Part shown: positions 36,602 to 53,859 of the stretch, in pieces
Layout: each line of letters opens with the position of its first letter
How positions within the stretch are numbered: position 1 is the stretch's first letter
NCBI GenBank assembly: GCA_017963105.1
Contig: JAGCTY010000031.1
Location: forward strand, 794-64,793
Length of the DNA stretch: 64,000 bases
Source: Lentisphaeria bacterium
Lineage (GTDB): Bacteria; Verrucomicrobiota; Lentisphaeria; Victivallales; UBA1829
Direction: 5' to 3'
Program-made: the position numbers and the translations under genes
Notes under the pieces: model-generated
The model's database searches: none
The model's input: only the letters and a program-made list of their open reading frames with translations
What the model was told of the DNA's origin: nothing

Positions 36602-37720
36602 ATGAAATTCGTTCGTTTCGGGTCGCTGACGCCGCAGAAGCAGATGCACTACAAGGAGCCGAAAACAGGCATGTGGCCCTGCTGTCCGCCGTGCAAGAAG
36701 GGGTTTTTCGCCTTCCCGGCGGGATACATGGACACGTTTTACCTGCCGTTGAGCCGTCCGCCGGAGGACCCGCATTCCCTGAAGCAGTACTTCCGCGATG
36801 AAAACGGCGAGAAAATCACAAAAAAAGCCTTTTATCGCAAAAACACCGAGGCTGCCGAACGCATCGCAAACTATGCGGAGGAACTGAAGTTCAGCAACTG
36901 GGGGCGGAATCTGAAACTGCCGAAGGGGGACAATGACTGGTTCTTTCGTATGGTAGCGAGGGATAAGCTGTACCCGAACGGAGAAGACGAGCCGACCGTC
37001 GCCCCGGGAATCCAGGCGCTGCTGAAGAAAAGGAAACTGAAAGAGTACCAGATCTTATGGGTCCAGCGGCCGTCCTACATCATGTACTTCCCCGATCCGA
37101 AAAAGGACCTGACGTTCTACGGACTCGGCACGGATCGGGAAGACCGGACCCGTCTGAGCCAGCCGCTGGAATTCCTGATCGATCCCTTCGGTAAGAAAAT
37201 CGAGCCAGACAATTACATTAATTCCGATTATTATGAGGGGGCTTTCCCGAGCCTTTTCGAGGGCGGATTTCGTGCGCCCGACCCGAAAAAGGATTACATG
37301 TCCCATTCCAGCGTTTATTTCCCGGACAAAAAGAGCGTCCCGTTTCTCAAGTGGCTGAAGATGAAGCATATTTCCCCGGATCAGCTTTGCGTCTGGCCGT
37401 GTTATCCCGAGGAAGAGGACGAATTCGCCACCACGCTGAAAAAATACCATGTCTTCGACTATGACGGATGCCTCTGGCATCATCTCGGCGAGCTTCTGAA
37501 ACCATCCGAGATCCTTTCCCGGTTCGCGGACACCTGGGTCTACACGGACATGCACGCCTATGAACGCGCGCTCAAGAAATCCAACGGCACCGCTTACCAG
37601 AGGAACATGAAGTACCAGCGGAATATGACGCGCCCCGGGTATTTCGGCACACAGACCTGGAACGGGACATTCGACCTGTCCACCATGTACGAAGTCTTCT
37701 TCGACGTAAAATTCCACTGA
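36602..37720 (+). CDS. Hypothetical cytoplasmic protein
   Basis: Long ORF with probable start MKFVRFGSL; PP..KGFFAFP and F.Y.G.LWHHL motifs; function not recognised. Confidence 0.7.
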   Translation: MKFVRFGSLTPQKQMHYKEPKTGMWPCCPPCKKGFFAFPAGYMDTFYLPLSRPPEDPHSLKQYFRDENGEKITKKAFYRKNTEAAERIANYAEELKFSNWGRNLKLPKGDNDWFFRMVARDKLYPNGEDEPTVAPGIQALLKKRKLKEYQILWVQRPSYIMYFPDPKKDLTFYGLGTDREDRTRLSQPLEFLIDPFGKKIEPDNYINSDYYEGAFPSLFEGGFRAPDPKKDYMSHSSVYFPDKKSVPFLKWLKMKHISPDQLCVWPCYPEEEDEFATTLKKYHVFDYDGCLWHHLGELLKPSEILSRFADTWVYTDMHAYERALKKSNGTAYQRNMKYQRNMTRPGYFGTQTWNGTFDLSTMYEVFFDVKFH

Positions 37721-37984
37721 TCCCGGAACGGACGTCCTCATATGAGGCACGATCCGCCGCTGTGAGGCACCGGTCCGCACCGTCCTGTCTATCTGTCCTA
37801 TTTTGCCCTGTCTCGCCTCTGCCGCGCCCGCGCCTGCCCGGAGCATCCCTGTTCATCGCGAAAGTCAAGTTCGTCGACCACGGCCGCGCCCATGCCGGCG
37901 TGAATCATTCGCACGTTTTTCTTGTCATTTCGAGGCGGGGGAGGCAGAAAGTTAAAAGTTTTTTTGCAGAGGCTTTTTTTCCGC

Positions 37985-38012
37985 TTGCATTTTTATGAAT
38001 CCGTGATATGGT
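37985..38012 (+). promoter_or_regulatory. Putative promoter at the head of the cassette array
   Basis: TTGCAT, 16 bp, TATGGT in an AT-rich tract upstream of 38090. Confidence 0.4.
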
Positions 38013-38089
38013 ATAGGATTGAAACGGCTGATGTTCTTGAATGCGCCGTACGGTTCCCTCGATCTTGAAACACCCCTGGAGAACTTGCC

Positions 38090-39433
38090 ATGAAAAAGAA
38101 AACTGTCTGGATTACCGCCGCGATCCTATGCCTTGTCGCCGTCATTTTTGTGCTGGTGCAGGTATACAGATCGATCCTCATCGAAGGGACGATCACGGAC
38201 GATCAGGGAAACGCCATGAACGGGGTTTCCGCCTATGTGACCTTTTCGCGCAAAAAAGCGGGATGGTACAGTGGGACAAAAGAACTCGAGGAGACCGTCG
38301 ATTCCTCCTTCCGTTTCGAGGGGAAAGGCGACGCTGTCTTCGTCGTTTTCGCCAAAAAAGGATACGCTCCGGGGCAAATCCAGCTTGACCGCGGGCGCGG
38401 CAGCCAAGTGCTCCGGCGCGACCTCCGCATCGTCATGAAGGAATTGACGCCGGAAGAACTGGAAAAACGTTTTTTCAGGACGATCTACGAATGGAGTCAA
38501 CTTGATGTCTACATCGACGCAGGGGAAAAAATGCCCACGACCGAGGACCAGCTTGAGCGTTTGCGCAAGTATTTCGGGCTGGAAAAAAGCGATATGACGG
38601 ATCTTTTCGTGAAAGCGATTCGGGAAGGCGTCGATACCGGCGAGGAGATCCTCGCCGAAGTTCATTTCGTCGACGATGAGGACAAGGAATACCTGATTGG
38701 CCCTCCGGACGATCTTTCCGGGATCGAAACGAAATCGGAGAAAAGGTCGCTCAGAGAACGGTATTTCTCTGCAATGCGTTATCTTCAGTATTATCCGCCG
38801 CCTCAGCAGCAGTTTTTGGAATTGATCCGGAAAGCAGTCGAACTGGAGCCGGAGTCCGCGGACACGCTCATTCTCTCTTATACGAAGGCGTACCCGGATT
38901 GGGTGTTCGATGACGGAACGATCCTTGAATTGACCTGCAAAAGCGACATGGAAGAGTTTAATCTTCGCGAGGCCGGCTCCGATTTAAGGGTTCAAGTTCG
39001 TCAGGAAAACGACGAGGCACGCAGGAAAAAGCTTCTTGACAAGGCTTTCGAATGGGCATTCCAGGACGACAAGGTCGAAATCTTTCATTATTTGGATAGG
39101 CTTTTGCTTGACCACTACGATAAGGATTACGCAACGAATCCCGGACGAAAGCTCCAGTTGGAAAAGGATTTGAAGCGTCATGAGGAAGCGGAGATTTATG
39201 ACTGGGTTTACCGCCGGACAAAATACGCTCTGGAACATTTCGACGAGGGAGATGAAGCGCTTGAAATGTTATACAAGTTGGATACAGATCCCAAAAGGTG
39301 GGATGGTGAGTGGGAACGTTCCGAGCGTAAAAGACGGATAAGAGAGAGTATAGAAGAGTGGAAGAAGGAGGGAAACGATCCGTCGTATATTTTTTCTGAA
39401 GATTTTCTCGAACGAATATACAAAGATGAATAG
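38090..39433 (+). CDS. Cassette 1: exported protein (beta-sandwich module A plus helical module B)
   Basis: Signal MKKKTVWITAAILC; IEGTITDDQG..TVDSSF..KKGY module; C-terminal half paralogous to 48159-49286. Confidence 0.8.
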   Translation: MKKKTVWITAAILCLVAVIFVLVQVYRSILIEGTITDDQGNAMNGVSAYVTFSRKKAGWYSGTKELEETVDSSFRFEGKGDAVFVVFAKKGYAPGQIQLDRGRGSQVLRRDLRIVMKELTPEELEKRFFRTIYEWSQLDVYIDAGEKMPTTEDQLERLRKYFGLEKSDMTDLFVKAIREGVDTGEEILAEVHFVDDEDKEYLIGPPDDLSGIETKSEKRSLRERYFSAMRYLQYYPPPQQQFLELIRKAVELEPESADTLILSYTKAYPDWVFDDGTILELTCKSDMEEFNLREAGSDLRVQVRQENDEARRKKLLDKAFEWAFQDDKVEIFHYLDRLLLDHYDKDYATNPGRKLQLEKDLKRHEEAEIYDWVYRRTKYALEHFDEGDEALEMLYKLDTDPKRWDGEWERSERKRRIRESIEEWKKEGNDPSYIFSEDFLERIYKDE

Positions 39434-39444
39434 ACTCCTTCTTT

Positions 39445-39483
39445 CCTCACCATCCCCGGCCGACTAACCCCGACACCACGGAG
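39445..39483 (+). repeat. Array repeat copy 1
   Basis: CCTCACCATCCCCGGCCGACTAACCCCGACACCACGGAG; similarity to other copies continues to about 39534. Confidence 0.95.
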
Positions 39484-39493
39484 AAAAATCAAT

Positions 39494-42400
39494 ATGAAAT
39501 ACAAATCGGTCAGCACCATCGCCGCGATCCTCTGTCCACTGGCGACACAATACAGGCGAACGGAAAAACGTTATAATAAGAGACAACAACACACAGGGGG
39601 TCCCGATATGAAAATGAAATCGATCCGCAGTGCTTTCTTCGCCGTAGTCGCGATCTTTCTGACCGTCGCAGCGTTCACCGGATGCGGCAAAAGCGAGGAA
39701 GGCGCGCCGGCCTCGAACGCCTCGGAAACGAAGACCGAAGCATCCGCCAGCACGACCCTCGAACAGCAAAAGAGCGCTCCGGGCGAAGCGGAACTCAGGA
39801 AAGGGCTTGCCGCCTGTGACAAGAATGACTACGAAGCGGCCGTGAAGTCCTTCCGCGCCGCCGCGGAACAGGGCAACTCGGACGCCATGCTGCTGTACTA
39901 TGATTGTCTGGTGAGCAGCAAGATCGCGAAAGACAGGGCTGACTCCATAGAATGGCTGGAAAAAGCCGCGGAGGCCGGAAACCTGACGGCGCAGGCGCTC
40001 TACGGCAGTAAATTTGTGGGCGGGGGGCAGGAAGCGAAGGGGATCGAATACATGAAGCGGTCCGCGGACAGCGGAAACATCCTGGGCATGCACCTGCTCG
40101 GGATGACCGCCTTTGAAAAAAAGCCCGGAGAAGCGGGCGAGGATGCCTTGAAGTCTCTGAAAACGCTTGCCGGCCTGCCGTTCTCGGAACAGAAAACAGT
40201 TTTGGATTATCTGCACCGGATCAGCAGCGACTTCAATCTGACGGGAAAACTCAACACCAATACGAACAAGCTCATCGTCATGGATCAATACATGCTCGGC
40301 GTGTATTACCTCGAAGGCAGAGCGCCCGGCGGGCGGCGGGATCTCGACGAGGCGGCGAAGTGGCTGAAGATGGCAAAGGACAACGGGCTTCCCGATGTCG
40401 ATCCGCTCCTGCGGAGGGTTGAGGTGATGAAGCAGAGCCCCGACGCAAGCCGGACCAATGAGGAACTCCAGAAGGCCAGAGCCGAAGCCTTCCTGGCCGA
40501 TACGCAAAACCAGATCGACGCTTCGGAATTCGACCTTCGGTTCACCATCACGGACGCCGACGGCAAGCCGCTGGACGGCGTCAAAGTGGAAATGAGACTG
40601 GAGCGTCCGGTTGTCAAATTGCTCCTGAGCGGCGGATCGGAATCCAAAAAACCGGAAGAGAAGACGGTCGATTCCAAGTTCAGCATTCACGAAAAAGGCT
40701 GGACGAGCCTCGAACTTACGTTCATGAAAGACGGCTATTATATCGAAGACCGCTACTATTATATCAACTTCATGCCGAACAGTCCCGACGAGCTCGGCCC
40801 GGACGGCAAACCGAAGCTCGTGATGAAGGAAGACGTCCAGGTCGTCATGTACAAGGGCGTCCCCCCCGGCGACCTGACCGGGACCAGCGGATACCTGATC
40901 TATGATTTAGAAAAAGCGACAAAGACGGTCTGCGATCTTTCCGCGTTCGACAAAAAGCTGGAACGACCGAAAAAGAGGACTGTTTCGGAGAAAGACGAGG
41001 AGGACGAGGAATATGATGACGAGGACGAGGAAGACGAAGAGGAATATGTGGAGGAAATCAGGATCGGAATGAAGAAGGTCGACCTGAAGGCGAAACCGGA
41101 ATTGACAAAGTATATCGAAGTGGATTTCAGGCGGGACGAAAACGGCGAAGTCCTGTTCGACGGGACGCTGGGGGACGCCCCGTGCCCCTCATCGTTCATC
41201 ATCCGTCTCCACTCCGACGATCCCGACGACGGTTTTATCGTCGTGGACGAATTGGGACCGGGGTTCGTCAGACGGGAAGAATACGAAAAACGTTGTCCGA
41301 CCGCCCCGGAAACCGGATACAAAAAAGAACTCGTGTTCGATTTCGGGAAAAAAAGCGCCGATGGGAAATACACGTATAATGATATTCACACATTCGCTTT
41401 CGTGAAATGCGGACAGCGCTACGGAAAAGTCTTTATCGATCCCGTTTATGTCGACATCGGAAGGAACCGGCCGCTCCGTCTGTTCCACAGGAAAATCCAG
41501 TTGACGATCAACAGAACCGAAGGCGACAGGAACGTGTCGGGCGGCAGTTTCTATGTCGAACGCGAGCGACCGGCGCAAACCAGGAACGACTTGAAGAAAA
41601 CGGATGCGAAGAACGAAGCCAAAGACGCTTCCGATGACAAGGCCGAACTGGCGAAAGAACAAATCCTGCTGATTCATGATGCACTTGAGCAGTACAAACT
41701 GGACGTCGGGACTTATCCCTCCAGTCTGCAGGGCCTCGAAAAGAACGTCGACAAGTCCGAACGCTGGGACGGCCCCTACATCGTGCCGAAGGTCCCGCGG
41801 GTGGATCTCTGGGGCAACAAATACCAGTACCGTTTCGACGCGGAAAAAGGAACGTATCGCCTGTACCTGATCTCGTTCGACCTTTCCGAAACGAGAATCG
41901 AGGATCCCCCGGAATCGGCGCAGGAACAACAGACCGAACCGGACGATCCGAAACAACCGGACATCTTCGCGGGATTGCCCCTCTGGAACACGGCGCGTGA
42001 CGGAAAGCCCGAAGTCATGCTCCCCAGACTCGTCAAGGATGCGGCGAAACGTGCGAATGTCAATCTCCAGTCGCTCGGCGATGTCAGGATCGATCCGATC
42101 GATGCCGGGCATTCCTACGCCGAGCTCGATCTCGATGTCGTCGACGAATACGGCAAAATCGTCCGCTTCCTCGAGGAAATCGAGAAGAAAACGCCGAAGC
42201 TTGCCTGGCGCCGCCTCGAACTCCGAGTCAATTCCGCCCGCGAACGCATCGCGTCCGAACTGCAGGACGGCGCGTCCGCTGCGGCCTCCGCCAAAGCGAT
42301 CCGCATGAGCGGGCAGGTCCGCGTCATCGCGTACGATCCGGCAGCCGGTCCCTCCGCATCGCCGAAGAGATTTTGGACGGATGACATGCCGGTTTCCCCC

Positions 42401-42982
42401 GGCGAAACGGACATTCTCACCCTGCTTTACGATTTGTCTGTCTCGCTCCCCGATGACGCTCTCGTGACCGTTTTCCGGCTTGACAACTGGAAATGCGAGT
42501 TCGTGATCCAGACGCTGGCGCTTTATACCGACCTCCCTCGGTACCTGCGCTTCCCCGCCTGGAATATCGGCAGGCTGCAGAAGAGGATCCTTTCCGATGA
42601 CGTTTGTACTTTCTCCGTGGCCCTTCAGAAAAAAGACAATCCGGAGCCGCGAAAGGACAGTGTGACCCCGGATAAAAAGATCGCGACCATCGTGGCTCTG
42701 AACCTCTTCGACCCGGAAGCCGTTCCGCGTAAGGCGGCCGCCTCCGGCATGCCCGCCTCGAACGGTACGCGCGCGAACAACGCGAAAGACCCTGAAACGG
42801 AACTGAAAGAGCAGCTGAAGAAGGCGATCAACAACCAGAATGAACTGAAAGAACTGCTCAAAACGCTCTCGAATACGCCCGGCGCCACGAAAGAGCAGAC
42901 CGATATGGTCGAGCAGCGCCTGAAACGCAACGAACAGGAGATCAGGCGCCTTCGGGAACAGCAGAACAGGCTTCGTCCCTGA
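39494..42982 (+). CDS. Cassette 2: mosaic lipoprotein (Sel1 repeats, modules A and C, GspG-like and GspM/GspL-like segments); probable start 39608
   Basis: Lipobox FTGC after the in-frame ATG at 39608; Sel1 motifs AAEQGNSDA and AAEAGN; region paralogous to 44943-45995; ALEQYKLDVGTYPS..WDGPY..D.WGN.YQY. Confidence 0.8.
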   Translation: MKYKSVSTIAAILCPLATQYRRTEKRYNKRQQHTGGPDMKMKSIRSAFFAVVAIFLTVAAFTGCGKSEEGAPASNASETKTEASASTTLEQQKSAPGEAELRKGLAACDKNDYEAAVKSFRAAAEQGNSDAMLLYYDCLVSSKIAKDRADSIEWLEKAAEAGNLTAQALYGSKFVGGGQEAKGIEYMKRSADSGNILGMHLLGMTAFEKKPGEAGEDALKSLKTLAGLPFSEQKTVLDYLHRISSDFNLTGKLNTNTNKLIVMDQYMLGVYYLEGRAPGGRRDLDEAAKWLKMAKDNGLPDVDPLLRRVEVMKQSPDASRTNEELQKARAEAFLADTQNQIDASEFDLRFTITDADGKPLDGVKVEMRLERPVVKLLLSGGSESKKPEEKTVDSKFSIHEKGWTSLELTFMKDGYYIEDRYYYINFMPNSPDELGPDGKPKLVMKEDVQVVMYKGVPPGDLTGTSGYLIYDLEKATKTVCDLSAFDKKLERPKKRTVSEKDEEDEEYDDEDEEDEEEYVEEIRIGMKKVDLKAKPELTKYIEVDFRRDENGEVLFDGTLGDAPCPSSFIIRLHSDDPDDGFIVVDELGPGFVRREEYEKRCPTAPETGYKKELVFDFGKKSADGKYTYNDIHTFAFVKCGQRYGKVFIDPVYVDIGRNRPLRLFHRKIQLTINRTEGDRNVSGGSFYVERERPAQTRNDLKKTDAKNEAKDASDDKAELAKEQILLIHDALEQYKLDVGTYPSSLQGLEKNVDKSERWDGPYIVPKVPRVDLWGNKYQYRFDAEKGTYRLYLISFDLSETRIEDPPESAQEQQTEPDDPKQPDIFAGLPLWNTARDGKPEVMLPRLVKDAAKRANVNLQSLGDVRIDPIDAGHSYAELDLDVVDEYGKIVRFLEEIEKKTPKLAWRRLELRVNSARERIASELQDGASAAASAKAIRMSGQVRVIAYDPAAGPSASPKRFWTDDMPVSPGETDILTLLYDLSVSLPDDALVTVFRLDNWKCEFVIQTLALYTDLPRYLRFPAWNIGRLQKRILSDDVCTFSVALQKKDNPEPRKDSVTPDKKIATIVALNLFDPEAVPRKAAASGMPASNGTRANNAKDPETELKEQLKKAINNQNELKELLKTLSNTPGATKEQTDMVEQRLKRNEQEIRRLREQQNRLRP

Positions 42983-42993
42983 TAACGCTTACC

Positions 42994-43032
42994 CCTCACC
43001 ATCCCCAGCCGACTAACCCCGACACCCCGGAG
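42994..43032 (+). repeat. Array repeat copy 2
   Basis: CCTCACCATCCCCAGCCGACTAACCCCGACACCCCGGAG. Confidence 0.95.
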
Positions 43033-43040
43033 ACCTTAAC

Positions 43041-44918
43041 ATGAAATACAAAACGGTCAGTACCATCGCCGCGATCCTCTGCGGTATCTTTGCATTGTTT
43101 ACCGCGACTCCGGCGACATCCGCGGAGATCATCGAGCATCCATACTGGATGACGGCGGAAAATACGAAAGGCATCCCGGAAGTGATCCTGCAGGGGTATC
43201 TGTATCGGAAAAACAAAACAAGAAAGGCGCTCGAAAAACAGAACGGCCCCAGGAGCGAAGAAGAGGAACGGAGGATCAACGACGTGTGGAGCGGGAATCT
43301 GCTGGAGTTGTCGCAGTATCTGGCCGAACACCCGGAGGAACAGCGGAAACTGGCGGAACATTACAAGAAGATCAGGATCGACGAGATCGACTGGGGGAAT
43401 CCGCCCGATCCGCCGTGGGTGAACGAGATCATTCGAAAAGAAATGGATCCGGCAAACCTGAAAGTGAACATCGAGCTCTATTACGACAGCCCGGAATGGA
43501 CGAAAGGGGCAGCCGAAAGAAATGCGCTGGGAGTTTTCGGCAGAACTTTTTTCCCGGATCAGCCTGCTCCCGTCGAAGGTCCTGACTTTGGAATCGGCTT
43601 TGGCGGGGGTAACGGGAATCATCCGGCCGACCGTTTCGAGCTCCTGAAACTCATTGCGCAGGAAAAAGAGAATCCGCATCAGTTCGATGGTTTCTTCAAC
43701 GCGAGAGACTGGGTGCGGTATTGGGAACAGCCGTACGGCGTCACCCGGAATACCTGCGTGATCGACCGGGAGTTCGAACGGAACGTCATGCTCGTTCTGT
43801 CCAGGACGGCCCCCATCGCGGAGCCTCAGAAACAATGGAACGCGCCTGTGCTGTCCAGATCCCTCCGGGATGACGATCATTATCAGTATTATCAATACAC
43901 CTGGCTGAACCGCTGCAAACTCGGCGTACTGTCCATGCTCATCACCGTAATCGAGGATCATGCGACCGGACTGATCTATAAAAATGATCTGCCGCGCGAT
44001 GATATGAGGGCCGCGCTCGACCTCTTCGCCTCGAAACTGCAATCGGGGAACGACGATATGGAAGCGGTCGCCCGTCTTCTCCGCATGATGCACGGGATGG
44101 CGCTGTGCGATATGCCCGGCGGAGCGGAATACGAAGCGATCGGGATGTGCCGCCGTGCATTGACGAAATGGGCAGGGATGAAGAACTGGTACTGGGAAAA
44201 ATCGGAAGAACTCCTGCAGCATGACAAGAACAACAAGGATGCAGTGCTGATTCCGCATCCCGTCAAAAAGCAGGATTTCTGGCCGAAACGCGATTCCGTG
44301 CAGCCGGACGAACCCGAAGTCATCCTCACGCTGGAAGGGACGCTTAACGCTTCGGGCAAGTTCGTTTTTACAGGCGACACGATCCGGTACGACGCACCCG
44401 GCGAACACCAGGCCCCGTCCGACGTCACGATCGACGGCAAGCCGTGGAAGGACCTGAACCAGCCGTTCAAGCTCGCTTTCACCCCGGATTTCGAGAATGT
44501 CATCATCGCGGACAGAGCGGGCGGGAACGGCGTTATGCTGAACAGAGGTTCGGAGCGGGCAGAGCTCACTCTCTTCATCGTCGATGCACATGCACCCGCG
44601 CCGCACTTTGTGGTCCGGCTGGTCGTCAAAAACGTCAGCAGTTCGCGCACAGAGCCTGCTCGCCTGAACCCGTCGGAGCTCCCGTCCGGCCCGATCCCGT
44701 TCCAACAGCAGTTGCAGATGGCGCTCGAACGGCGCGCCGTGCTGGAAAAAACGATCAGGAATCTTGAATTGGTCCCGGATTTCCCGGAGGAGTCGATCGA
44801 CGAGGTGCGCAGGCAACTCCGGGATCTCGACCGTATGATCGAGCTACTGAAAGAGGTCGTCGAAAAAGCAGCCGCCCGTGATGCAAACGAACCACCCTCG
44901 CCACCCCCAGCCGACTAA
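43041..44918 (+). CDS. Cassette 3: secreted hypothetical protein
   Basis: MKYKTVSTIAAILC signal; the ORF ends at the TAA inside repeat copy 3 (PSPPPAD*). Confidence 0.8.
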   Translation: MKYKTVSTIAAILCGIFALFTATPATSAEIIEHPYWMTAENTKGIPEVILQGYLYRKNKTRKALEKQNGPRSEEEERRINDVWSGNLLELSQYLAEHPEEQRKLAEHYKKIRIDEIDWGNPPDPPWVNEIIRKEMDPANLKVNIELYYDSPEWTKGAAERNALGVFGRTFFPDQPAPVEGPDFGIGFGGGNGNHPADRFELLKLIAQEKENPHQFDGFFNARDWVRYWEQPYGVTRNTCVIDREFERNVMLVLSRTAPIAEPQKQWNAPVLSRSLRDDDHYQYYQYTWLNRCKLGVLSMLITVIEDHATGLIYKNDLPRDDMRAALDLFASKLQSGNDDMEAVARLLRMMHGMALCDMPGGAEYEAIGMCRRALTKWAGMKNWYWEKSEELLQHDKNNKDAVLIPHPVKKQDFWPKRDSVQPDEPEVILTLEGTLNASGKFVFTGDTIRYDAPGEHQAPSDVTIDGKPWKDLNQPFKLAFTPDFENVIIADRAGGNGVMLNRGSERAELTLFIVDAHAPAPHFVVRLVVKNVSSSRTEPARLNPSELPSGPIPFQQQLQMALERRAVLEKTIRNLELVPDFPEESIDEVRRQLRDLDRMIELLKEVVEKAAARDANEPPSPPPAD

Positions 44919-44934
44919 CCCCGACACCACGGAG
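44896..44934 (+). repeat. Array repeat copy 3
   Basis: CCTCGCCACCCCCAGCCGACTAACCCCGACACCACGGAG. Confidence 0.95.
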
Positions 44935-44942
44935 GAAATACC

Positions 44943-45995
44943 ATGAAATACAAAACGGTCAGCACCATCGCCGCGATCCTCTGCCTCGGCCTGACGGCAG
45001 GGCTTCTGGGCAGTTCCTGCAAGACCGGAACGGCTCTGCTGATGAATGCGGATGACAATCTCAGGATCTCGTCTTCGGGATTCGACCTCCGCGGGACCGT
45101 GACGGACGAAGACGGCAATCCGCTCGACGGCGTGAAGATGGAAATGGCATTCTCGCGCGTCAACACCGCGTCGTTCCGGTCGGAGAACCTGCATGAAACG
45201 GAAACGGTCGATTCGGCGTTTCATGTTCAGAGAAAGGGCTGGACGGAGCTCCAGCTAACGTTCTGGAAAGACGGTTATTTCCCGGAACGACTCGCTTTTG
45301 ACTCGCCGTGGTTGGAAAAAGGCAAAAAACGTTATGTCGAGGAGGACGGAGTCCAGGTCAGAATGGTCAAAATGGGACCGATCGCGAAATTATACCGGAC
45401 CAGGACCAGCGACTCGATTCGTCTCAAATACGATTTCAAACAGGAATCCGGGGCAATCTGCGACCTCTCCATGCTTCAAGCTTCGGAAGAACTGGACAGA
45501 AGGCAATACGAGAACATCGAGGCGACGGCTTTTAAACTGGAATCGGGACCGGAAGCGACGAAGTATCTGGAACTGGATTTTAGGCGGAATGAAAACGGCG
45601 AAATCGTTTTTGTCTCTCTTCCAGGCGTGCTCGCGCCGTGTCCCGCCGAATTGATCGTCCGGCTTCACTCGGACGACCCGGGCGACGGGATGATCTTGCT
45701 CAACGAACTGGACCCCGACATCACGGAGGACAAGGTCTACAAGAAATACAACACCGCGCCGGAAACCGGATACGACAGGAAAGAAATCGCCTTTGCGCTG
45801 ACCGATCAATGGCATGAACTTGACAAGTCAACTAATTTCGTCTATTTGAAATGCGGAAACCACTATGGAAAAGCCAGGATTCGTAACCTTAATATTGAAA
45901 TACACAGGACATTTGAGAGCGCCAAGGCATTTATTGCGCTTCATATCAACCGGGTCCCCGGCGACAGAAATCTGACATCACAATTCGGCTTTTGA
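44943..45995 (+). CDS. Cassette 4: lipoprotein (modules A and C)
   Basis: MKYKTVSTIAAILC...GSSC; LHSDDP.DG, TAPETGY, KCG..YGK and INR..GDRN are shared with cassette 2. Confidence 0.8.
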   Translation: MKYKTVSTIAAILCLGLTAGLLGSSCKTGTALLMNADDNLRISSSGFDLRGTVTDEDGNPLDGVKMEMAFSRVNTASFRSENLHETETVDSAFHVQRKGWTELQLTFWKDGYFPERLAFDSPWLEKGKKRYVEEDGVQVRMVKMGPIAKLYRTRTSDSIRLKYDFKQESGAICDLSMLQASEELDRRQYENIEATAFKLESGPEATKYLELDFRRNENGEIVFVSLPGVLAPCPAELIVRLHSDDPGDGMILLNELDPDITEDKVYKKYNTAPETGYDRKEIAFALTDQWHELDKSTNFVYLKCGNHYGKARIRNLNIEIHRTFESAKAFIALHINRVPGDRNLTSQFGF

Positions 45996-46010
45996 CACCC
46001 CACACCATCG

Positions 46011-46049
46011 CCTCACCATCCCCAGCCGACTAACCCCGACACCACGGAG
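46011..46049 (+). repeat. Array repeat copy 4
   Basis: Consensus copy, followed by a short leader ORF at 46058-46162 (MKYKTVSTIAAILCPLATQYRRTKKRYNKKQQHT*). Confidence 0.95.
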
Positions 46050-46171
46050 GAAATACCATGAAATACAAAACGGTCAGCACCATCGCCGCGATCCTCTGTC
46101 CACTGGCAACACAATATCGGCGAACGAAAAAACGTTATAATAAGAAACAACAACACACTTGAGGTCCCGAT

Positions 46172-48079
46172 ATGAAAACGAAATCGTTCCGCAGCACGAT
46201 CTTTGCCGTCGTCGCACTCTTCCTGACCGTCGCAGCGTTCACCGGATGCGGCAAACGCGGGGGAAATGCGGATCATTCTTTACGGGAAGACAATGCCGCA
46301 TTTGAGGCAAAGGATGGAGAAAACACGGAAGAGCTTTCGGAAAAAGGCAATGCCGCTTTTGAGGCGAAGGATTTGGAGATCGCGACCATTCAGCTGGAAC
46401 AGTATTCCGGCAGCGTCCGCTCCTCACAACCGGACGTAAGAACGCAGTCCGTTTCCATTGCGAACCGGTCCGACAAAACGATTGACTTATACGGCTATTC
46501 CGTCACGAACAACGGAAAAGAAATCCTGCGGATCAACGAGCATGTCGAATTGGAAAAAGATGCAAAGAAGGTGTTTCCGCTCCCTTTAGTCGATACAGGA
46601 AAAGAGAACAGGAAGCAGGGATTCGCAATCGAGCCATGGTTCCTTTACTCCATAGTCTTCAAGGACGAGAATGAAGCCCGGAAGGAACGGGAAGAGCTTG
46701 CGACGATGATGGAACGGTATCTGCCGTATCTCACGGAACTGAGTAAAACGATATTCGAAGTAGACTATAGTACGGGGAAATATTCGTTCTACTTTTCGGA
46801 AATCGCCTTGAAGTCTCCCCGGAATGAAACCGTGGACCAGATACTTCTGACGAAGGTGGATGTTCAGAAGAATCCGTATTCCCTTGTGGCATTCTTAGAA
46901 CCCATACAAGCCACAGGCGTTTTTCGGAAAGGAAATCGTGCGATCGTCTGCAGCGTGCCCGAAATGGCGCCTTTCCCGGTCGACATTATCTTTTACAGCG
47001 GGCAGTCACTGGCGATACTTACAAGCGGGAATCAATACTTCAGCGAAAACACCGGATTGTTTGTGCCGGATCTGAAGATGACATTATCCCTGTATCGTGA
47101 TCAGGACCTCAAGGAAGAAATGGTCCGTCTGGAAGGAGAGAAATTCTTTTTCAACAAAATGAGCGAAGCGCAAACGGATGAACTCGATAAGTTCCTGGAC
47201 GGGGCAAGAATGAAGGAAGTGTATTATAAACTTTCCGTCACGCATCCGGTTTTCCCCGAATTGTCGCTTCCGGAGCCATTGACCGGAAAAGTTAATATCC
47301 AGCTGCGGCTAGCGCGCAGCCCCGGCAGCGGCATCGCCTACGAGTACAACGCCCTCAACAACATCACGGGGCAGGTAAGAAATACGAATTGGAACACGGA
47401 ATCCGCGACTGGCAATGGCGGCGGAGCCGTCAACAGAACCGGAGGCAGATCCGCCGCGCAGGACGAGTATCCGGGTTCCCGGCTTGTGAACGGCATTCTT
47501 TACTCGGAGGACGGTTCCACCCTCATTTCCTGCGTTTCCGCGCCGAACGGCCCGTGCATCGTCCAGCCGGGCGTGAAGACCATCGCAGATCGCGCGTTTT
47601 CCGGCTGCGCCGGATTGACGGAAGTCCGCCTGCCGGAAGGCATCACGAAGATCGGCCGCTCCGCATTCTGGAAATGCTCCGGGTTGAAACGCATCAATCT
47701 GCCGGACTCGCTGGAAGAGATCGGGACCAATGTGTTTGAGGAGTGTACCGGACTGACGGAGATCGCGATCCCGCCGGGCATCCGTGTCATCAAGTCGAGC
47801 ACATTTATCGTGTGTGCCGGGCTGAAGCGCGTCGATCTGCCGGATTCGCTGACGGAAATCGAGTTTGCCGCGTTTACGGCGTGTACCGGGCTGACGGAGA
47901 TCACGATCCCGCCGAACGTCACATCCATCGGGGAAAGCGCGTTTGCGGGGTGTACCGGACTGAAGCACGTGACGCTCCCGGACAGCCTGAAATCCATTTC
48001 TCCGGGCGCTTTTTCCGGTTGCGAGTCCCTTGACCAGGAAACACGGGAGCGTCTGAACAAACTGACACGCAGGCCATAG
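46172..48079 (+). CDS. Cassette 5: lipoprotein with C-terminal BspA-type leucine-rich repeats (LRR_5)
   Basis: Lipobox FTGC; repeated C.GL..I.LP.SL..IG..AF units. Confidence 0.85.
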   Translation: MKTKSFRSTIFAVVALFLTVAAFTGCGKRGGNADHSLREDNAAFEAKDGENTEELSEKGNAAFEAKDLEIATIQLEQYSGSVRSSQPDVRTQSVSIANRSDKTIDLYGYSVTNNGKEILRINEHVELEKDAKKVFPLPLVDTGKENRKQGFAIEPWFLYSIVFKDENEARKEREELATMMERYLPYLTELSKTIFEVDYSTGKYSFYFSEIALKSPRNETVDQILLTKVDVQKNPYSLVAFLEPIQATGVFRKGNRAIVCSVPEMAPFPVDIIFYSGQSLAILTSGNQYFSENTGLFVPDLKMTLSLYRDQDLKEEMVRLEGEKFFFNKMSEAQTDELDKFLDGARMKEVYYKLSVTHPVFPELSLPEPLTGKVNIQLRLARSPGSGIAYEYNALNNITGQVRNTNWNTESATGNGGGAVNRTGGRSAAQDEYPGSRLVNGILYSEDGSTLISCVSAPNGPCIVQPGVKTIADRAFSGCAGLTEVRLPEGITKIGRSAFWKCSGLKRINLPDSLEEIGTNVFEECTGLTEIAIPPGIRVIKSSTFIVCAGLKRVDLPDSLTEIEFAAFTACTGLTEITIPPNVTSIGESAFAGCTGLKHVTLPDSLKSISPGAFSGCESLDQETRERLNKLTRRP

Positions 48080-48111
48080 CCTTTCGCGAGTTCAAGGGAA
48101 AAGCGGACCCT

Positions 48112-48150
48112 CCTCACCATCCCCAGCCGACTAACCCCGACACCACGGAG
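48112..48150 (+). repeat. Array repeat copy 5
   Basis: Consensus copy. Confidence 0.95.
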
Positions 48151-48158
48151 AATATAAC

Positions 48159-49286
48159 ATGAAACACAAATCGGTCAGCACCATCGCCGCACTCCTCTGC
48201 GGCGGCTTCCTCTCGTTTATTCCGGCATTCGCGCAGGAGAACACGGATGGAAAAACGGAACAAGACAAGACCTCACAAATGCAGCCGCATTACACGCTGG
48301 AGGAGCTGAAGAATGCTGAAATAACGGCGACCGGGGCAACGAACGCCGATAACAATGGATCGTCAGGCACTTCGCTGAACAATGACCAGATGGAAGAATT
48401 GACAGAATCACTCTTTCAGGCAATTCAATTTTGGTCATCGCTTGATGACATGCGTAACCCAGAAGCCAGTCTTAGCAGATATGATCGCCTTGAGCTCTGG
48501 CGTAAAGAACATAAACTCGAAAAAGATGATATGACGAAGATTTTTGTCAAAACAATTCAAGTTTATTTTTTAGAACTGGAAAAGAAATCAGAAAACAAAA
48601 AACTTATGATGTGGCATTTTTATGCCATCTCCAGTCTCAGGGATTATCCGCCGCCTCAAAAGGTGTTCAAGGAACTGATTCAAAAAACATTTCAAATGGA
48701 ACCAAATTGTGTTGAAGGGGTCATATATGAGTATATAAGTGTATTCCCGGATTGGGTTTTTGATGACAAACCGATTATTGAAATAATATATAAAACCAAC
48801 TCAAAAACAAACAGACTTTACAGAGTGTGCTCTGATTTAAAAGACCAAATTCTTAAAGAAAAAAATGAAGTTCGTAAAAAGAAGCTTCTTGATAAGGCTT
48901 TCGAATGGGCTTTTCAGGATGACAAGCTTGACATCTTCTGTTTTTTAGACAGAACTTTGCTTGACCACTACGATAAGGAGTATGCAACACATCCTGGACG
49001 AAAGCTCCAACTGGAAAAGGATTTGAAGCGTTATGAGGAAGCCAAGAATTACGACTGGGTTTACCGCCGGACGAAATATGCGCTGGAGCATTTCGGCGAG
49101 GGAGACGAAGCGTTTGAAATGTTATACAAGATGGATACGGATCCCAAATTGCAAGATGGTGAATGGGATCGTTCTGAGCGCAAAAGACGCTCAAGAGAGC
49201 ATATAGAAGAGATGAAGAAGGCGGGAAAAGACCCCAGGTCTGTTTATTCCAAAAGGTATCTTGACGAACTATACAGCGATGAATAA
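48159..49286 (+). CDS. Cassette 6: secreted protein (module B), AT-rich
   Basis: MKHKSVSTIAALLC signal; KKLLDKAFEWAFQDDK and PGRKLQLEKDLKR are shared with cassette 1. Confidence 0.8.
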   Translation: MKHKSVSTIAALLCGGFLSFIPAFAQENTDGKTEQDKTSQMQPHYTLEELKNAEITATGATNADNNGSSGTSLNNDQMEELTESLFQAIQFWSSLDDMRNPEASLSRYDRLELWRKEHKLEKDDMTKIFVKTIQVYFLELEKKSENKKLMMWHFYAISSLRDYPPPQKVFKELIQKTFQMEPNCVEGVIYEYISVFPDWVFDDKPIIEIIYKTNSKTNRLYRVCSDLKDQILKEKNEVRKKKLLDKAFEWAFQDDKLDIFCFLDRTLLDHYDKEYATHPGRKLQLEKDLKRYEEAKNYDWVYRRTKYALEHFGEGDEAFEMLYKMDTDPKLQDGEWDRSERKRRSREHIEEMKKAGKDPRSVYSKRYLDELYSDE

Positions 49287-49292
49287 ACATCC

Positions 49293-49331
49293 CCTCACCA
49301 TCCCCAGCCGACTAACCCCGACACCACGGAG
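49293..49331 (+). repeat. Array repeat copy 6
   Basis: Consensus copy. Confidence 0.95.
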
Positions 49332-49339
49332 GATATAAC

Positions 49340-52249
49340 ATGAAATCTAAAACAGCTTGGATCATTGCCCTGATCGCGCTGCCGCTTCTTGCGGCAGTAT
49401 TCACTCTGCACGCACAGAAACAAGACGACGGACGGGACAAACAGGAGCGCTCTTTTGGAGTTGAAAAGATTTATATTAGTGATGGTATTTTAAATTATTG
49501 TCTATCTCCGGATGCAGCTGACAGCGCTGTTGTGCTTTATTCCTTTGATATTCGAGATGGAGAATGTAAACAATACTATTTACCTATGACAATCGTTCCC
49601 GAAATCGACACCAGAAATGATGGGAATAAACAAATCATTAAATTCCCCCTTGCATGGTACATGAACAGCGAAGAGTTACTTATTGTATTTCATGATTTAG
49701 AATCAGATGCAATGGGCAGAGTTATATTTTGTCTTTTTTCAACAGACAGGACCCGCGATTTTGATTTTCGGTCTTTTACAGATTATTATGAATATCAAAA
49801 TGATATAATGAAGTATAAGGGGTTTTATTTCGGCGTGGGTGGCCGCATATATATCCATGGAATGAGTTCTGCCCCATTTGTGGATCATCGTCTAACTAAC
49901 AATTCTAAAATATGGTATGATTTTGCTGGCAAAAATATTATTGCACGTTTCCCATCCTTATCCGATAAGCAAGAAAACTGGATGCCATCAGAAAATCCAG
50001 CATACTATAAATGGATGTCGTATGCAATTGAAGATGGTAAGAGTATTGTTATTCAAGATGATCAATTGAAAGATTTTTACCCATTATCAAGTATTTCTGT
50101 AAAAGGGAAAAAAATCTATACGGATAATGGTGAAACGATCAACTTTCCAAGCGATATTGATTCGATCATTTGGGGTATTGATAACAATTCAACTCCAAGT
50201 ATAATATTGTTATCTCAAACCGATAAGATTAAAATTTCTAAAAAGGATTATCCGAAACTTCCGAAGTTGATTCTTGCAAATGAAGACTCTGATTACGTGA
50301 TGTTTATTTTTGACCGCAAGATTGATTCATCGAATGTGCAAGGTTCTTTACAGGAGATCAAAGATGTGCTCGAAAAGAGCAGTTTATTACAACAATATCC
50401 ACCACGTCCTAAGAAAAAGGAAGTTAAGCCAACAGAAAATGTGATACATACTGCTACGCCATCGCCTGAAGAAATGAAACGGAGAGAAGCTGAATATTTA
50501 GCGAATCATCTCAAAGTATTGTATGAATCCGCCAATATTATTGTTACAATTACGCCACCAGATATCAATCAATTCAGTGAAGGTAATATTCAATTGCTTG
50601 ATAAATCGAAACAAAATAAAATATTATGGGAAATGGCAATTCCAAGTCAAATGGAATCAGGAACAGGGGCCGGGGCTATAAAATCAACGGCGTTTTTTGA
50701 AGATAATAAACGCGGATTTTTCTATGCTGCTATTATCCGCAATGAACTGTTTCCTGAAGTAGTTATTCTTAAAATTGATTCAAAGAATGAAACAGTAAGT
50801 GAATTAAGGTTTGCCAGTCCTTTTCTTCCGGACCTGCCATTTAAAAAGATGAAGTTGAACGTGGTCCAAAATATTGTTTTTTTATCTGTCACATATAATG
50901 ACAATAAACATCAAGAATCTGCTATAGATATTTCTTCTGGTTTTTACAATATGATATTGAATGAGAGACATAGAAAATATCCATATATACCGACAGAATT
51001 GTTTCTATTATTGACATCAGGTGACACAAATGATAATGATGATTTTCTCGACATACAGGATATAAAACATAAAAGGTTAAAGTCACTGTATGCAGACCTG
51101 ACGATTTTAGGATTAAGTTTCGCCGAATATTTGTATCATGTCGATGTTAAAGGCTCCTCCATTAATGATAGCACATTTGCTAATCTAAACAAAAAATATC
51201 ATGTTAGTTCGTTGCTTAACAATAAAGTTTATGAAGATGAGTTAGATCACTATTTGGATCAAAACTCAGAGATTTTATGGTCTATTCAAAAAAGAATAGA
51301 CAAACGAATAATTCGACAGGCAAAATTTCTAAACAAAGATGCATTCTTAAAACAAATAGCTCAAATACATGTATCGAAAGACGCGGGGGCTGCCGTTAAT
51401 CCATCGCCTGAAGAAATGGAACGGAGAAAAGCTGAATTTTTAGCGAATCTACCGAAAGATAACATTTTTACCGATGACGAGTTTAAAGCTCTGTTTCCCA
51501 AGGTTGAATATGATAAAATTTCCGATTTATACGAGCGTGGCATGGCTTATGATTGGGATGAGAAATTCTCCGATGCCATGAAATGCTTTGAGCAAGACTC
51601 ATCATTAAAGTCAAAATTAATGTTGGCAATGTATTACAAAACCGGGAGACCTGATATTCCAAAAGACTCTGTCAAGGCTAATGCTATCTTTAATGAGATA
51701 ATTGAAGATGTCAGTAACAAATCCGCCCCCACTCCTGAAATGTTATGCATAGCCGGACGCGCCTGCATGGAATTTGTTTCAACAGAATTTTTTGAAACAC
51801 AAGAGTTTCAAAAAAAAGCAACAGAATTCTTCAAAGAATCCATTGAGCAAGGATATGCTGCTGCCGCTTTTTATCCTCAATATTACATAAGAAACAATGG
51901 TAAGTTTCAACCTCGGGAATTACTTGAAATAGCCAACAAAAACAACTGTTTGGACACTGAAGTGTTAGCCGCAGGGATGGCATTATTTCGGAATCCTGTC
52001 TTTATGAATTATCGCAACAAACAGGAAAACCTGTTAACCATCAAAAAGGGTATTCAAGCACACATCCCATTGGCGGAATATATCCTTGGCGAATTATTCT
52101 ATCTTGATGCCGCGAATCCTGATCTTGCATTAAAGCCGAATCGAGAACTGGCGTTATTCTGGATGAAACGTGCCGCGAATCATGGAGAAGCGGATGCCAT
52201 AGAACTTTTACGGCAAAATCCCACTTTGAGATCATTGCTGCATCCTTGA
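49340..52249 (+). CDS. Cassette 7: large, very AT-rich secreted protein with C-terminal Sel1-like repeats
   Basis: Signal peptide; ALFWMKRAANHGEADA; internal duplicated SPEEM.RR.AE.LAN linker. Confidence 0.8.
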   Translation: MKSKTAWIIALIALPLLAAVFTLHAQKQDDGRDKQERSFGVEKIYISDGILNYCLSPDAADSAVVLYSFDIRDGECKQYYLPMTIVPEIDTRNDGNKQIIKFPLAWYMNSEELLIVFHDLESDAMGRVIFCLFSTDRTRDFDFRSFTDYYEYQNDIMKYKGFYFGVGGRIYIHGMSSAPFVDHRLTNNSKIWYDFAGKNIIARFPSLSDKQENWMPSENPAYYKWMSYAIEDGKSIVIQDDQLKDFYPLSSISVKGKKIYTDNGETINFPSDIDSIIWGIDNNSTPSIILLSQTDKIKISKKDYPKLPKLILANEDSDYVMFIFDRKIDSSNVQGSLQEIKDVLEKSSLLQQYPPRPKKKEVKPTENVIHTATPSPEEMKRREAEYLANHLKVLYESANIIVTITPPDINQFSEGNIQLLDKSKQNKILWEMAIPSQMESGTGAGAIKSTAFFEDNKRGFFYAAIIRNELFPEVVILKIDSKNETVSELRFASPFLPDLPFKKMKLNVVQNIVFLSVTYNDNKHQESAIDISSGFYNMILNERHRKYPYIPTELFLLLTSGDTNDNDDFLDIQDIKHKRLKSLYADLTILGLSFAEYLYHVDVKGSSINDSTFANLNKKYHVSSLLNNKVYEDELDHYLDQNSEILWSIQKRIDKRIIRQAKFLNKDAFLKQIAQIHVSKDAGAAVNPSPEEMERRKAEFLANLPKDNIFTDDEFKALFPKVEYDKISDLYERGMAYDWDEKFSDAMKCFEQDSSLKSKLMLAMYYKTGRPDIPKDSVKANAIFNEIIEDVSNKSAPTPEMLCIAGRACMEFVSTEFFETQEFQKKATEFFKESIEQGYAAAAFYPQYYIRNNGKFQPRELLEIANKNNCLDTEVLAAGMALFRNPVFMNYRNKQENLLTIKKGIQAHIPLAEYILGELFYLDAANPDLALKPNRELALFWMKRAANHGEADAIELLRQNPTLRSLLHP

Positions 52250-52267: not shown

Positions 52268-52738
52268 ATGACGAACGTAATTTTCAACAGCGGCTTTATC
52301 GGCTTTTTGGTTTGGGTGTTGCTCTTTGCCGTCAGCACGGCGGCACTGGCAATCGCTATCCGCTGTGTGTGGGGGTTGCATAAAACTATATTTGCGATGG
52401 CGGAATTCAAAGAAAAGTTGATTCCGTTTCTTTTTCTCGCTTTCGCTCTGATGTTTTCGGTCCTTCCTCTGCGCGTCCAGGCGGCATTGCCGAAGGAACT
52501 TCCGACTGCACCGACGAAGTTCCTGACGGGAGCCTGCCTGACACGTTCGGAAGACCTTTGGATCACGGCGGAGGCGGGCGGCGTCTACCGTCTGAGCGGG
52601 CAGGAGATGAAGCCGAAGTGGAAGGATATGCGGAAGCAGCCGGGATTCCCGAAGACGGACAACTGCCAGTCTATAACAAAACAACAACAACTTGAAACCT
52701 CGCCGGAGCAGCACCCCTCACCACCCCCAGCCGACTAA
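52268..52738 (+). pseudogene. Probable chimeric fragment ORF (ExbB/TolQ-like N-terminus plus the start of a secreted beta-propeller-like protein)
   Basis: SGFIGFLVWVLLFAVS.AALAIAIR, then a second signal (LRVQA) and DLWITAEAGGVYRL; terminates in repeat copy 7. Confidence 0.45.
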
Positions 52739-52756
52739 CCCCGACACCGCATGGAG
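52716..52756 (+). repeat. Array repeat copy 7
   Basis: CCTCACCACCCCCAGCCGACTAACCCCGACACCGCATGGAG. Confidence 0.92.
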
Positions 52757-52764
52757 AATTTAAC

Positions 52765-53859
52765 ATGAAACACCGATTATTCCTGCCTGCGCTGATGTGC
52801 TGCCTGACACTGACGGCATTCGGTTTCTTCGTATTTGCCCTGGTCCGTGACTCCATGCGGAACACGCCGCAGACGGACTGGGAAGGATGGAACATGTATG
52901 TTGCCGTCCCTGAATTCGATTTGTCTTGCCGATTGGCCAAGAAATACGGGCTTGATGCCTGCCCGCCGTCAGATTGCACAAACGATCGCATTATCGGGTT
53001 CCGGTTCAACCTTGACCACCCGGAACACGCGGCGGAGATCGTGCGCGATCTCCATGAATGGAAGCGCCAGTCGCCGGAACTCGTCAACGAAACGTTCGGC
53101 GTGGATGCCTACCTCTATCGCTCGGATGACAAGCACTGGCGAACAGAACGGCTTCTGGTCATCCGCACGATGATGCCTGCGCCGGGAAGGACCGAATTTC
53201 AGGGGGCGTATCAGGGGCGGACAAGCGACGTGGTGATCGAAAACGGCAATGTTTCGAAGACGTTCACACCGGATGAGTTCTATCATCCCGCCGACGGATC
53301 CGACGAAGCCGATACATTCATCCGGGCCCTTGCGGACGCCCCCGTAGCCGAGACGGAGAAAACGGCTGGGGAAAAGATTCCCGATGTCAACAACGAGGCG
53401 ATGCTCACAAACCAGAAAGCGTACTTGGAAAAGAGCGGTCGTTCCATGTTCGAGATTCTGCCGGGACTGTTCGCCGCGACATGGTTCGACTTCATCTGCG
53501 CGATTGTCCTTTTCCTTTTCGCCATCCGTTATCGGGATCAGGGAATCGGCGGGCGTCTCTTCCCGTTATGGCTTCTGACCATCCTGCACATGCTTCTGTT
53601 TCCTTCGCTCGACCTCATTCCGCTCGACCATGACAAGATCGCCGGGACCATGACCGGAACCATTTTCCTCGTTCTGGAGTCGACAATCTTGTTTTCGCCC
53701 CTCGTCCTGTTCCTGTTTGCCCTAGTCTACGGAATCGCGCTGAGCAACATGAAGCGAACGGACCGCCCGTTGAAAATCGCCTTCGTTTTATTTTCCGCAA
53801 ACGTTCTCATTCAGGGGCTGATCGCATTGAGCGTATGGGCCCTTTCGCAGGGCGGATAA
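52765..53859 (+). CDS. Cassette 8: membrane protein (N-terminal anchor, extracytoplasmic domain, about 4 C-terminal TMs)
   Basis: Hydrophobicity pattern; starts directly after repeat copy 7. Confidence 0.75.
   Translation: MKHRLFLPALMCCLTLTAFGFFVFALVRDSMRNTPQTDWEGWNMYVAVPEFDLSCRLAKKYGLDACPPSDCTNDRIIGFRFNLDHPEHAAEIVRDLHEWKRQSPELVNETFGVDAYLYRSDDKHWRTERLLVIRTMMPAPGRTEFQGAYQGRTSDVVIENGNVSKTFTPDEFYHPADGSDEADTFIRALADAPVAETEKTAGEKIPDVNNEAMLTNQKAYLEKSGRSMFEILPGLFAATWFDFICAIVLFLFAIRYRDQGIGGRLFPLWLLTILHMLLFPSLDLIPLDHDKIAGTMTGTIFLVLESTILFSPLVLFLFALVYGIALSNMKRTDRPLKIAFVLFSANVLIQGLIALSVWALSQGG

Follow-up and report, generated by a model that had tools for sequence, protein, structure and literature searches.

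A conserved leader and signal-peptide start as a probable recombination patch among tandem cassettes for exported proteins in a Lentisphaeria bacterium

We analyzed a 64,000-nt stretch of DNA (the window) from a Lentisphaeria bacterium, which corresponds to contig C133:794-64793 of a 3.03-Mb assembly with 187 contigs and 60% guanine plus cytosine (GC). Positions 38090-53859 hold nine plus-strand genes arranged head to tail, in tandem and co-directional, and seven of the intergenic spacers of this array contain the same 18-nt core, A2 (CCGACTAACCCCGACACC), as part of a unit of about 90 nt that is here called the head. We consider it probable that this unit is both a conserved homology patch and an expression signal at which the tandem cassettes recombine, and that it is the 5' end common to a family of Sec-exported proteins which is specific to the genus and encoded in such arrays in rumen Lentisphaeria/Victivallales. 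Judged from the comparisons with related genomes given below, heads and the genes behind them (passengers) have demonstrably been recombined in nature, and we infer that the head would serve to initiate translation and would encode the beginning of a signal peptide.

Results

Composition and boundary of the head

The head consists of a leader, formed by the blocks A1 (CCTCACCAYCCCCAG) and A2, a Shine-Dalgarno sequence (SD; GGAG), and an ATG with the n-region and the first half of the h-region of a signal peptide. The leader is C-rich and G-poor, and the elements follow each other in the order A1, A2, ACGGAG, 8-11 nt, ATG. In five of the seven window copies, the first 14 codons are ATGAAAYACAAAWCG followed by the 26-mer GTCAGCACCATCGCCGCGATCCTCTG; the encoded sequence, MK[YH]K[ST]VSTIAA[IL]LC, is referred to as the type I start. 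It belongs to a continuum of homologous starts that also includes a g0-like form (MK.KT.WI.AAI, after g0, the first gene of the array), type II (MK.KT.WIIALIA) and type IV (MKHR.FL), with ATC..GCC GCG ATC-like codons kept in all of them. The conserved block covers the intergenic leader and codons 1-14, and not a central position of the open reading frame (ORF).

The A2 core matches the window seven times, always on the plus strand (39460, 43009, 44911, 46026, 48127, 49308 and 52731), with 0.05 matches expected by chance, and the 26-mer matches it five times at up to two mismatches, with 0.00 expected. Across the genome, 10 of the 12 core matches are real heads. Three of these lie outside the window on contigs C54, C64 and C89, each within 1.2 kb of a contig end, so that the head count is a lower bound. 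The type I 14-codon start is present in seven of the ten genome heads (five window genes and two on other contigs). Contig C64 also carries an orphan truncated type I start (MKYKSVSTIAAV-stop, C64:2365-2402), which stands directly 3' of the module A gene of that contig and has neither the A1/A2 leader nor a passenger; a comparable orphan head occurs at L046 9430.

The first-pass annotation of this DNA had described a common start that ends in a sharp edge past CCTCTG, and the position-wise comparison of the genome-wide copies bears this out. Mean pairwise identity among the seven copies of the genome is 0.90-1.00 at positions +2 to +37, 0.71 at +38 to +43 and 0.33 at +44 to +49, with values of 0.23-0.44 further downstream. 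The drop to about 0.33 occurs within 6-9 nt past CCTCTG, and the hexamers reported to follow it (TCCACT, CGGTAT, CCTCGG, TCCACT and CGGCGG) were all found again. Upstream of -47, identity is 0.25-0.35, and thus the conserved block has variable flanks on both sides. The drop is sharp, but the divergence is less complete than had been described: a Gly codon comes next (LCG) in 14 of 21 distinct copies of the genus, a weak residual identity of 0.36-0.45 among the genus copies reaches +67, and copies 1 and 4 are alike over a further ~150 nt, made up of a linker and a lipoprotein signal peptide. Copies 6 and 7 had been said to diverge right after ATGAAA. This holds for copy 7, which departs immediately past these codons, but not for copy 6, which retains 25 of the first 36 nt (manual count on the alignment) and is by this alignment a diverged homologue of the type I start.

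Reassortment of heads and passengers

The passenger of c6 has a GC content of 32-38%, against 60% for the genome, and looks like recently shared foreign DNA. Its counterpart in a congener, which is 95-97% identical, stands behind an unrelated leader and begins with a low-GC signal peptide of its own (MKKNFFRFFFCGLFF...); the identity between the two breaks off within a few nt at window position ~49446, which is codon 36. In a third species, a type IV head is joined to an internal portion of the same passenger. Within the clade of the C64 module A protein, members with 96-97% amino acid identity carry either a type II signal peptide or a type I head with linker and lipoprotein signal, and both arrangements are found in both subclades. 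The proteins closest to c3, at 47-48% identity over module A, start with MKHR[VL]FL, and their signal peptides align with that of c3 from IAA to SSCK.

Comparison of closely related genes revealed similar breaks at the 5' ends. Between g0 and its orthologue, the body is 97-100% identical, the first 60 nt are 73-77% identical and the upstream sequence is unrelated; between the C89 gene and its orthologue, the body is 93-100% identical and the leader unrelated. The 42-nt head of c5 differs from that of its orthologue at four positions and the next 90 nt at one (manual count), and the tract that c5 and a congener have in common extends between consecutive A2 blocks, from 48125 to 49318. Within the window, the head of copy 4 is the same as that of copy 3 from A2 to CCTCTG, and the linker and gene behind copy 4 are c1-like (88%). 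Over 44 distinct head instances with 20 passenger clusters, more than one upstream context was observed in all eight clusters seen at least twice. Moreover, five passengers (c1/c4-type, c2, c3, c5 and D13) occur behind both A1 and a promoter-like TTGACT-17-TAAAGT block. In the relatives L004, L009, L010, L025 and L030 and in many metagenome contigs (L100-L129), this block (TTGACT-17 nt-TAAAGT) often replaces A1 before A2; a search of the window's genome with its sequence, TTGACTTTTCCCGGAATAGGTGATAAAGT, gave 0 matches at up to five mismatches.

Whole cassettes are also present or absent between heads. At the site where the window has the order c2, head, c3, the metagenome contigs L102 and L105 contain, after c2 (98.5% identical to window 43007-44984) and a head, an extra 1.2-kb g0/c5-like cassette. 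In L102 this cassette is followed by a further head and c3 (97.8% to window 44896-46063), and both heads match the single c2/c3 head of the window. The joint of the c3 passenger in the metagenome contig L106 is displaced by 6-8 nt in the downstream direction. These comparisons do not reveal the fixed fusion point behind the Cys codon that was originally proposed; besides the shift in L106, the junctions lie at codon 14 (c3, c1/c4), at codon ~36 (c6) or just past the lipobox (C64 group).

These observations bear on plain vertical descent, in which full-length paralogues would have inherited leader and signal peptide by duplication and retained them through a slower-evolving 5' end without any exchange. 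Several features fit such a history, among them the continuum from type I through the g0-like form and type II to type IV, the modules common to several passengers, and the orthologues in congeners, which retain the start. However, passengers with 96-100% identity differ in their signal peptides or stand behind unrelated leaders, c6 places foreign GC behind a resident head, and a cassette indel lies between heads. The type of signal peptide is also close to random on the tree of module A, where it needs eight changes over 17 labelled rows (nine rows of "other" type were excluded from the count), compared with 7-12 in shuffles, of which 27 of 1000 needed eight or fewer; tree and type are therefore barely congruent. 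Duplication with an inherited signal, the alternative named from the outset, thus explains part of the pattern, and heads and passengers have yet recombined. Unless the mosaics are assembly artefacts, vertical descent without exchange is already contradicted, and we regard it as very unlikely.

Second start in copies 1 and 4

Copies 1 and 4 both continue past CCTCTG with the 73-nt basic linker, behind which stand another SD and ATG and a complete lipoprotein signal peptide. The head frame of copy 1 runs on into c1, and the same is true in two congeners, whereas that of copy 4 closes at a TGA after 34 codons. From this arrangement, the common start of these two copies is evidently not the working signal peptide, and annotation should not always take the first ATG for the real start.

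Passengers and their signal peptides

The passengers had been described as otherwise unrelated, which applies to the bodies of c2, c4 and c7 but not to the remainder. Module A (~330 aa) is present in c1, c3 and the C64 gene and partly in g0, and module B in g0 and c5 (52% identity over 326 aa). Pairwise, c1 and c3 are 37.5% identical over 360 aa and c1 and c4 46% over 78 aa, and Sel1 repeats occur in c1, the C54 gene and c6. When the passengers were compared with Pfam and NCBIfam, only Sel1, GspG-like (c1) and BspA leucine-rich repeat (c4) matches were obtained. Residues 1-415 of c2 have no match in 59 other genomes searched in the family. The remaining part of this protein, residues 420-616, matched more than 150 times across 13 of 15 congeners, often as several repeats per protein of 500-2100 aa, and had no Pfam or NCBIfam family match. 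A sequence search of the PDB with c3 returned nothing useful; its structural model (predicted local distance difference test, pLDDT, 87.8) consists of beta-sandwich domains, for which only weak matches of transthyretin or carboxypeptidase-regulatory type (template modelling score, TM, about 0.2) were found.

By eye, and from the sequence only, the N-termini look Sec-type. Candidate AxA sites were noted in c2 (...ATSA|E), c5 (...AFA|Q), the C54 gene (...ASA|Q), the C89 gene (...AFA|Q) and also c6, and candidate lipobox-like sites in c3 (LLGSS|C) and c1/c4 (FTG|C), again by eye. The 14 common codons yield only an MKYK n-region and about 10 hydrophobic residues, and each productive fusion contributes 8-14 hydrophobic residues of its own together with an AxA site or a lipobox. 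Hence the idea of a portable unit stands for the SD, the ATG, the n-region and these ~10 residues, but the unit is not self-sufficient, because the passengers bring the remainder of the h-region as well as the cleavage site. The second halves of the h-region are themselves homologous among several genes (C54/c5, 72% over 29 aa). No match of the N-terminus to Pfam, including the ESPR-type family, was obtained at E up to 1, and nothing relevant was found in the portions of the literature on Victivallales signal peptides available to us.

Conservation in relatives and searches for other elements

The named records with the motif are metagenome-assembled genomes (MAGs) of Lentisphaeria or Victivallales from rumen. 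Of 15 congeners, 9 have the A2 core, and outside the genus it occurs in 1 of 25 genomes, there as a two-mismatch match. The 26-mer is found in 8 of the 15 congeners; of its 15 places beyond the window's genome, 7 are exact. From codon usage alone, the same nine codons would be expected with P = 1.4e-3, and by comparison of its copies the block is far more conserved than neutral coding sequence. The secA genes of these genomes are 81-86% identical over most of their length; some cassette bodies are 92-100% identical between the same species. In the congeners L023, L024 and L088 and on contig C170 of the window's genome (minus strand; start at 29914 of the reverse complement), genes which we take to resemble undecaprenyl-diphosphatase genes carry, in frame and ahead of MDLTLSLQAFVQGIVEGVTEFLPVSS, the N-terminal extension MK.KTVS.VAAI.LCCILA. 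In two congeners, the DNA of this extension agrees with the type I 26-mer in 23 of 26 positions.

The conserved 5' block may instead be a nucleic-acid element under purifying selection, with recombination as a secondary matter: either an mRNA leader and early-coding signal for translation, membrane targeting or a regulator, or a DNA operator. Such an element would fit the 11-nt palindrome ATCGCCGCGAT, the invariance of synonymous sites in nine codons over paralogues and species, and the occurrence of the A2 core before other start types and unrelated 5' ends. In addition, the leader ACACCACGGAG is confined to the family in this genome, where it is found in 11 of 35 loose matches, all 11 of them family members. 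On the other hand, the head has no stable fold, no Rfam match and no convincing 13-mer partner, the 26-mer drifts in some orthologues, and both orphan and truncated heads exist. The cassette bodies, too, are far more similar between species than secA, so that much of the identity is explained by recent transfer. We consider a nucleic-acid element unlikely as the main explanation.

A structured RNA in the head, including pairing of the SD with UCCUCUG, was rejected, as no fold was better than those of shuffles (z-scores +0.12 to -1.72), and Rfam 15 gave 0 matches at E up to 1 on 37500-54500. A partner acting in trans was also rejected: when both strands of the head were compared with the rest of the genome, few 13-mers matched, and these look like chance matches within coding sequence, with the exception of the C64 orphan head. 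No sigma-70-type promoter and no intrinsic terminator was found at the heads on the plus strand, and the promoter-like matches concentrate in the AT-rich body of c6. The SD, the unstructured C/A-rich leader and the lack of promoter- or terminator-like sites at the heads point to a role as translation start, one that would fit a position within an operon. RNA contigs from one run cover parts of c1, c2, c4, c6 and c7 and give no indication of start, end or transcription.

A dedicated site-specific cassette system, similar to an integron or to a shufflon or invertase, would use the 26-mer or A2 as its site and CCTCTG as the crossover. The array has one repeat per gene and is co-directional, three classes of junction have the same 3' edge, and cassettes are present or absent between repeats, all of which such a system could produce. 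However, no recombinase, integrase or invertase was found among the 29 window ORFs scanned with Pfam, a scan that is not exhaustive for the window or the genome. None of the nine inverted-repeat pairs in 42900-46250 touches a head, all seven copies stand on the plus strand and the junctions are not fixed. We therefore rejected the integron or invertase reading and regard a dedicated site-specific system as extremely unlikely.

Layout of the array and neighboring genes

The coordinates of the heads and genes are given in Table 1. The end of c2 overlaps the head that follows it: c2 runs through A1, with the C-terminus ...PPSPPPAD, and its TAA (44916-44918) lies in the A2 core.

Table 1. Features of the array in window coordinates
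Feature	Position	Strand	Description
g0	38090..39433	+	First gene of the array; start is a diverged homologue of the common start (MKKKTVWITAAILC)
Head copy 1	39445..39534	+	A1 39445-39459, A2 39460-39477, SD, ATG 39494, 14 codons, CCTCTG end 39534
Linker	39535..39607	+	73 nt, in frame, basic stretch PLATQYRRTEKRYNKRQQHTGGPD; common to copy 4 and two congeners
c1	39608..42982	+	Own SD and ATG, lipoprotein-type signal peptide, Sel1 repeats, module A, GspG-like domain, C-terminal part
Head copy 2	42994..43081	+	ATG 43041
c2	43041..44918	+	Residues 420-616 form a genus-common domain; stop is TAA within the next A2 core
Head copy 3	44896..44983	+	ATG 44943; A2 core to CCTCTG same as copy 4
c3	44943..45995	+	Module A protein; possible lipobox LLGSSC
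Head copy 4	46011..46098	+	ATG 46058
Head frame of copy 4	46058..46162	+	34 codons, then TGA; same frame as the gene downstream
c4	46172..48079	+	Lipoprotein signal peptide and BspA-type leucine-rich repeats
Head copy 5	48112..48199	+	ATG 48159; variant MKHKSVSTIAALLC
c5	48159..49286	+	Module B protein; 52% identity to the C-terminal part of g0
Copy 6	49293..49445	+	A1, A2, SD, ATG 49340, type II signal peptide and linker (common to contig C64); ends at the junction with the low-GC passenger
c6 passenger	49446..52249	+	32-38% GC; 95-97% identity to a congener gene with a different signal peptide
Copy 7	52716..52767	+	A1, A2, SD, ATG 52765; upstream of c7 with type IV start MKHRLFL
c7	52765..53859	+	Membrane protein; last gene of the array

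Further examination of the window revealed several features beside the array. A perfect 12-nt inverted repeat at 54021-54047 (CAATCGGTTAGT, GAG, ACTAACCGATTG) lies in a lower-GC stretch at the array end, and the stop end of a gene with Fic/DOC and Bro-N domains (54160-55089, minus strand) adjoins it. At 31290-33044 (minus strand), a single ORF contains both PlsY (glycerol-3-phosphate acyltransferase) and GpsA (NAD-dependent glycerol-3-phosphate dehydrogenase) domains. The SecA protein encoded at 59006-62380 (minus strand) has 1124 aa, and its DEAD-like match spans residues 6-604 against a profile of 290 positions, a span that points to a large insertion in addition to the usual preprotein-binding domain.

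Discussion

We favor homologous recombination at the head as the probable explanation of these patterns. Recombination of RecA type and gene conversion would act at the near-identical patch and exchange the upstream side (a promoter-type or in-array leader and the neighboring gene) against the downstream side (the passenger). Crossovers between heads could insert, delete and reorder whole cassettes, swap leaders and pass cassettes between species. Exchange tracts would stop at CCTCTG(CGG) because the patch ends there, which would produce the sharp edge, and on the best reading this edge is the 3' limit of common homology (last common block ATCGCCGCGATCCTCTG) rather than a dedicated fusion site. 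The new joints between head and passenger, such as codon 36 of c6 and the position past the lipobox in the C64 group, would have arisen from other events, probably involving short homology.

Several points weigh against this explanation. The persistence of the same 26 nt across species is not explained by recombination alone, and selection at the nucleotide level may also act. The 26-mer is not invariant either, as the orthologue in the congener L083 has five changes within it (manual count). The genus-wide identity profile is affected by ascertainment, because the copies were found by the 26-mer itself. With instances collected by no more than the first 32 nt, the 9 nt behind these read GATCCTCTG in 20 of 32 distinct instances and variants of it in 12 of 32. 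In a pairwise count of end points, 163 of 210 pairs stop at +41, a figure that is biased by ascertainment with the 26-mer and is not relied on. Moreover, all genomes are MAGs or metagenome contigs, in which a repeat of 75-90 nt can make assemblers mis-join strains, so that some adjacencies may be chimeric, and no listed independent contig bridges the c2-to-c3 junction of the window. The public runs consist of contigs or unitigs only, which end at heads, and their depth, holes and short-sided joints (43016>46107; 49150>52716 in two runs) are not usable as evidence. Users of such data should note that breaks of MAG contigs tend to fall at heads and that mis-joins may occur there.

Comparison with known systems places the array in context. 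Integron arrays are likewise co-directional, with one repeat per cassette and variable content. Unlike them, the present array has no intI in the scanned ORFs and no attC-like imperfect inverted repeat, and its repeat is 5' and partly coding, with SD and ATG. Polymorphic toxin loci (CdiA, Rhs) combine a constant N-terminal part with variable C-terminal parts and orphan modules; the array resembles them in its constant 5' part, sharp switch, orphan fragments and exchange by recombination. It differs in that the constant part is only a leader and half a signal peptide and in that no toxin/immunity pair was recognized. The ESPR of autotransporters is an N-terminal extension ahead of a classical signal peptide, and the long form of c1 would similarly read n1-h1-n2-h2-lipobox, but there is no Pfam match at the threshold given above, copy 4 has an in-frame stop and the second ATG has its own SD. 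In the p35 and vsp systems of mycoplasmas, expression is switched through promoter or site-specific inversion, unlike in the present array, whose copies all point in one direction and where neither an invertible element nor a recombinase was observed. Both systems consist of tandem surface lipoproteins, with a conserved signal-peptide-encoding 5' end in p35 of Mycoplasma penetrans and a conserved region upstream of the ORF in vsp of Mycoplasma bovis, according to the portions of a published account available to us (PMC2568036).

The closest analogue, as far as those portions describe it, is the tandem lipoprotein-like cluster lpl of Staphylococcus aureus, in which a short region conserved at the nucleotide level lies between two variable ones, and homologous recombination there reassorts the flanks and gives indels between strains (Tsuru and Kobayashi 2008, PMC2568036). 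Tandem paralogues, a conserved patch, incongruent flanks and indels that end in the patch are found here as well. The lpl patch, however, comprises 132 nt inside the ORF, downstream of the signal peptide, whereas the patch in our array is the leader with the first 14 codons. Unlike in lpl as described in that account, what reassorts here is the promoter or leader and the neighbor against whole, often unrelated passengers, and it does so across species.

It is also conceivable, although quite unlikely in our estimation, that the head is an integrase-free adaptor for capture and export. Since every cassette stands between two copies of the ~90-nt patch, any ORF that had once gained a head would be able to move between arrays and species by homologous recombination, and it would bring along its leader, SD, ATG and signal-peptide start. 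If this were true, the synonymous invariance would be held by selection for exchangeability or by an added function at the mRNA level, and c6, whose native signal peptide would have been replaced by the resident head, would represent foreign DNA domesticated into the secretome.

Under the favored explanation of a conserved patch at which tandem cassettes recombine, the head would be a common joint for the turnover of the secreted and surface repertoire in this uncultured gut and rumen lineage, through which promoters, neighbors and bodies would be reshuffled across species. It would also extend the conserved-patch model of the lpl type to a patch that is partly non-coding and bears expression signals.

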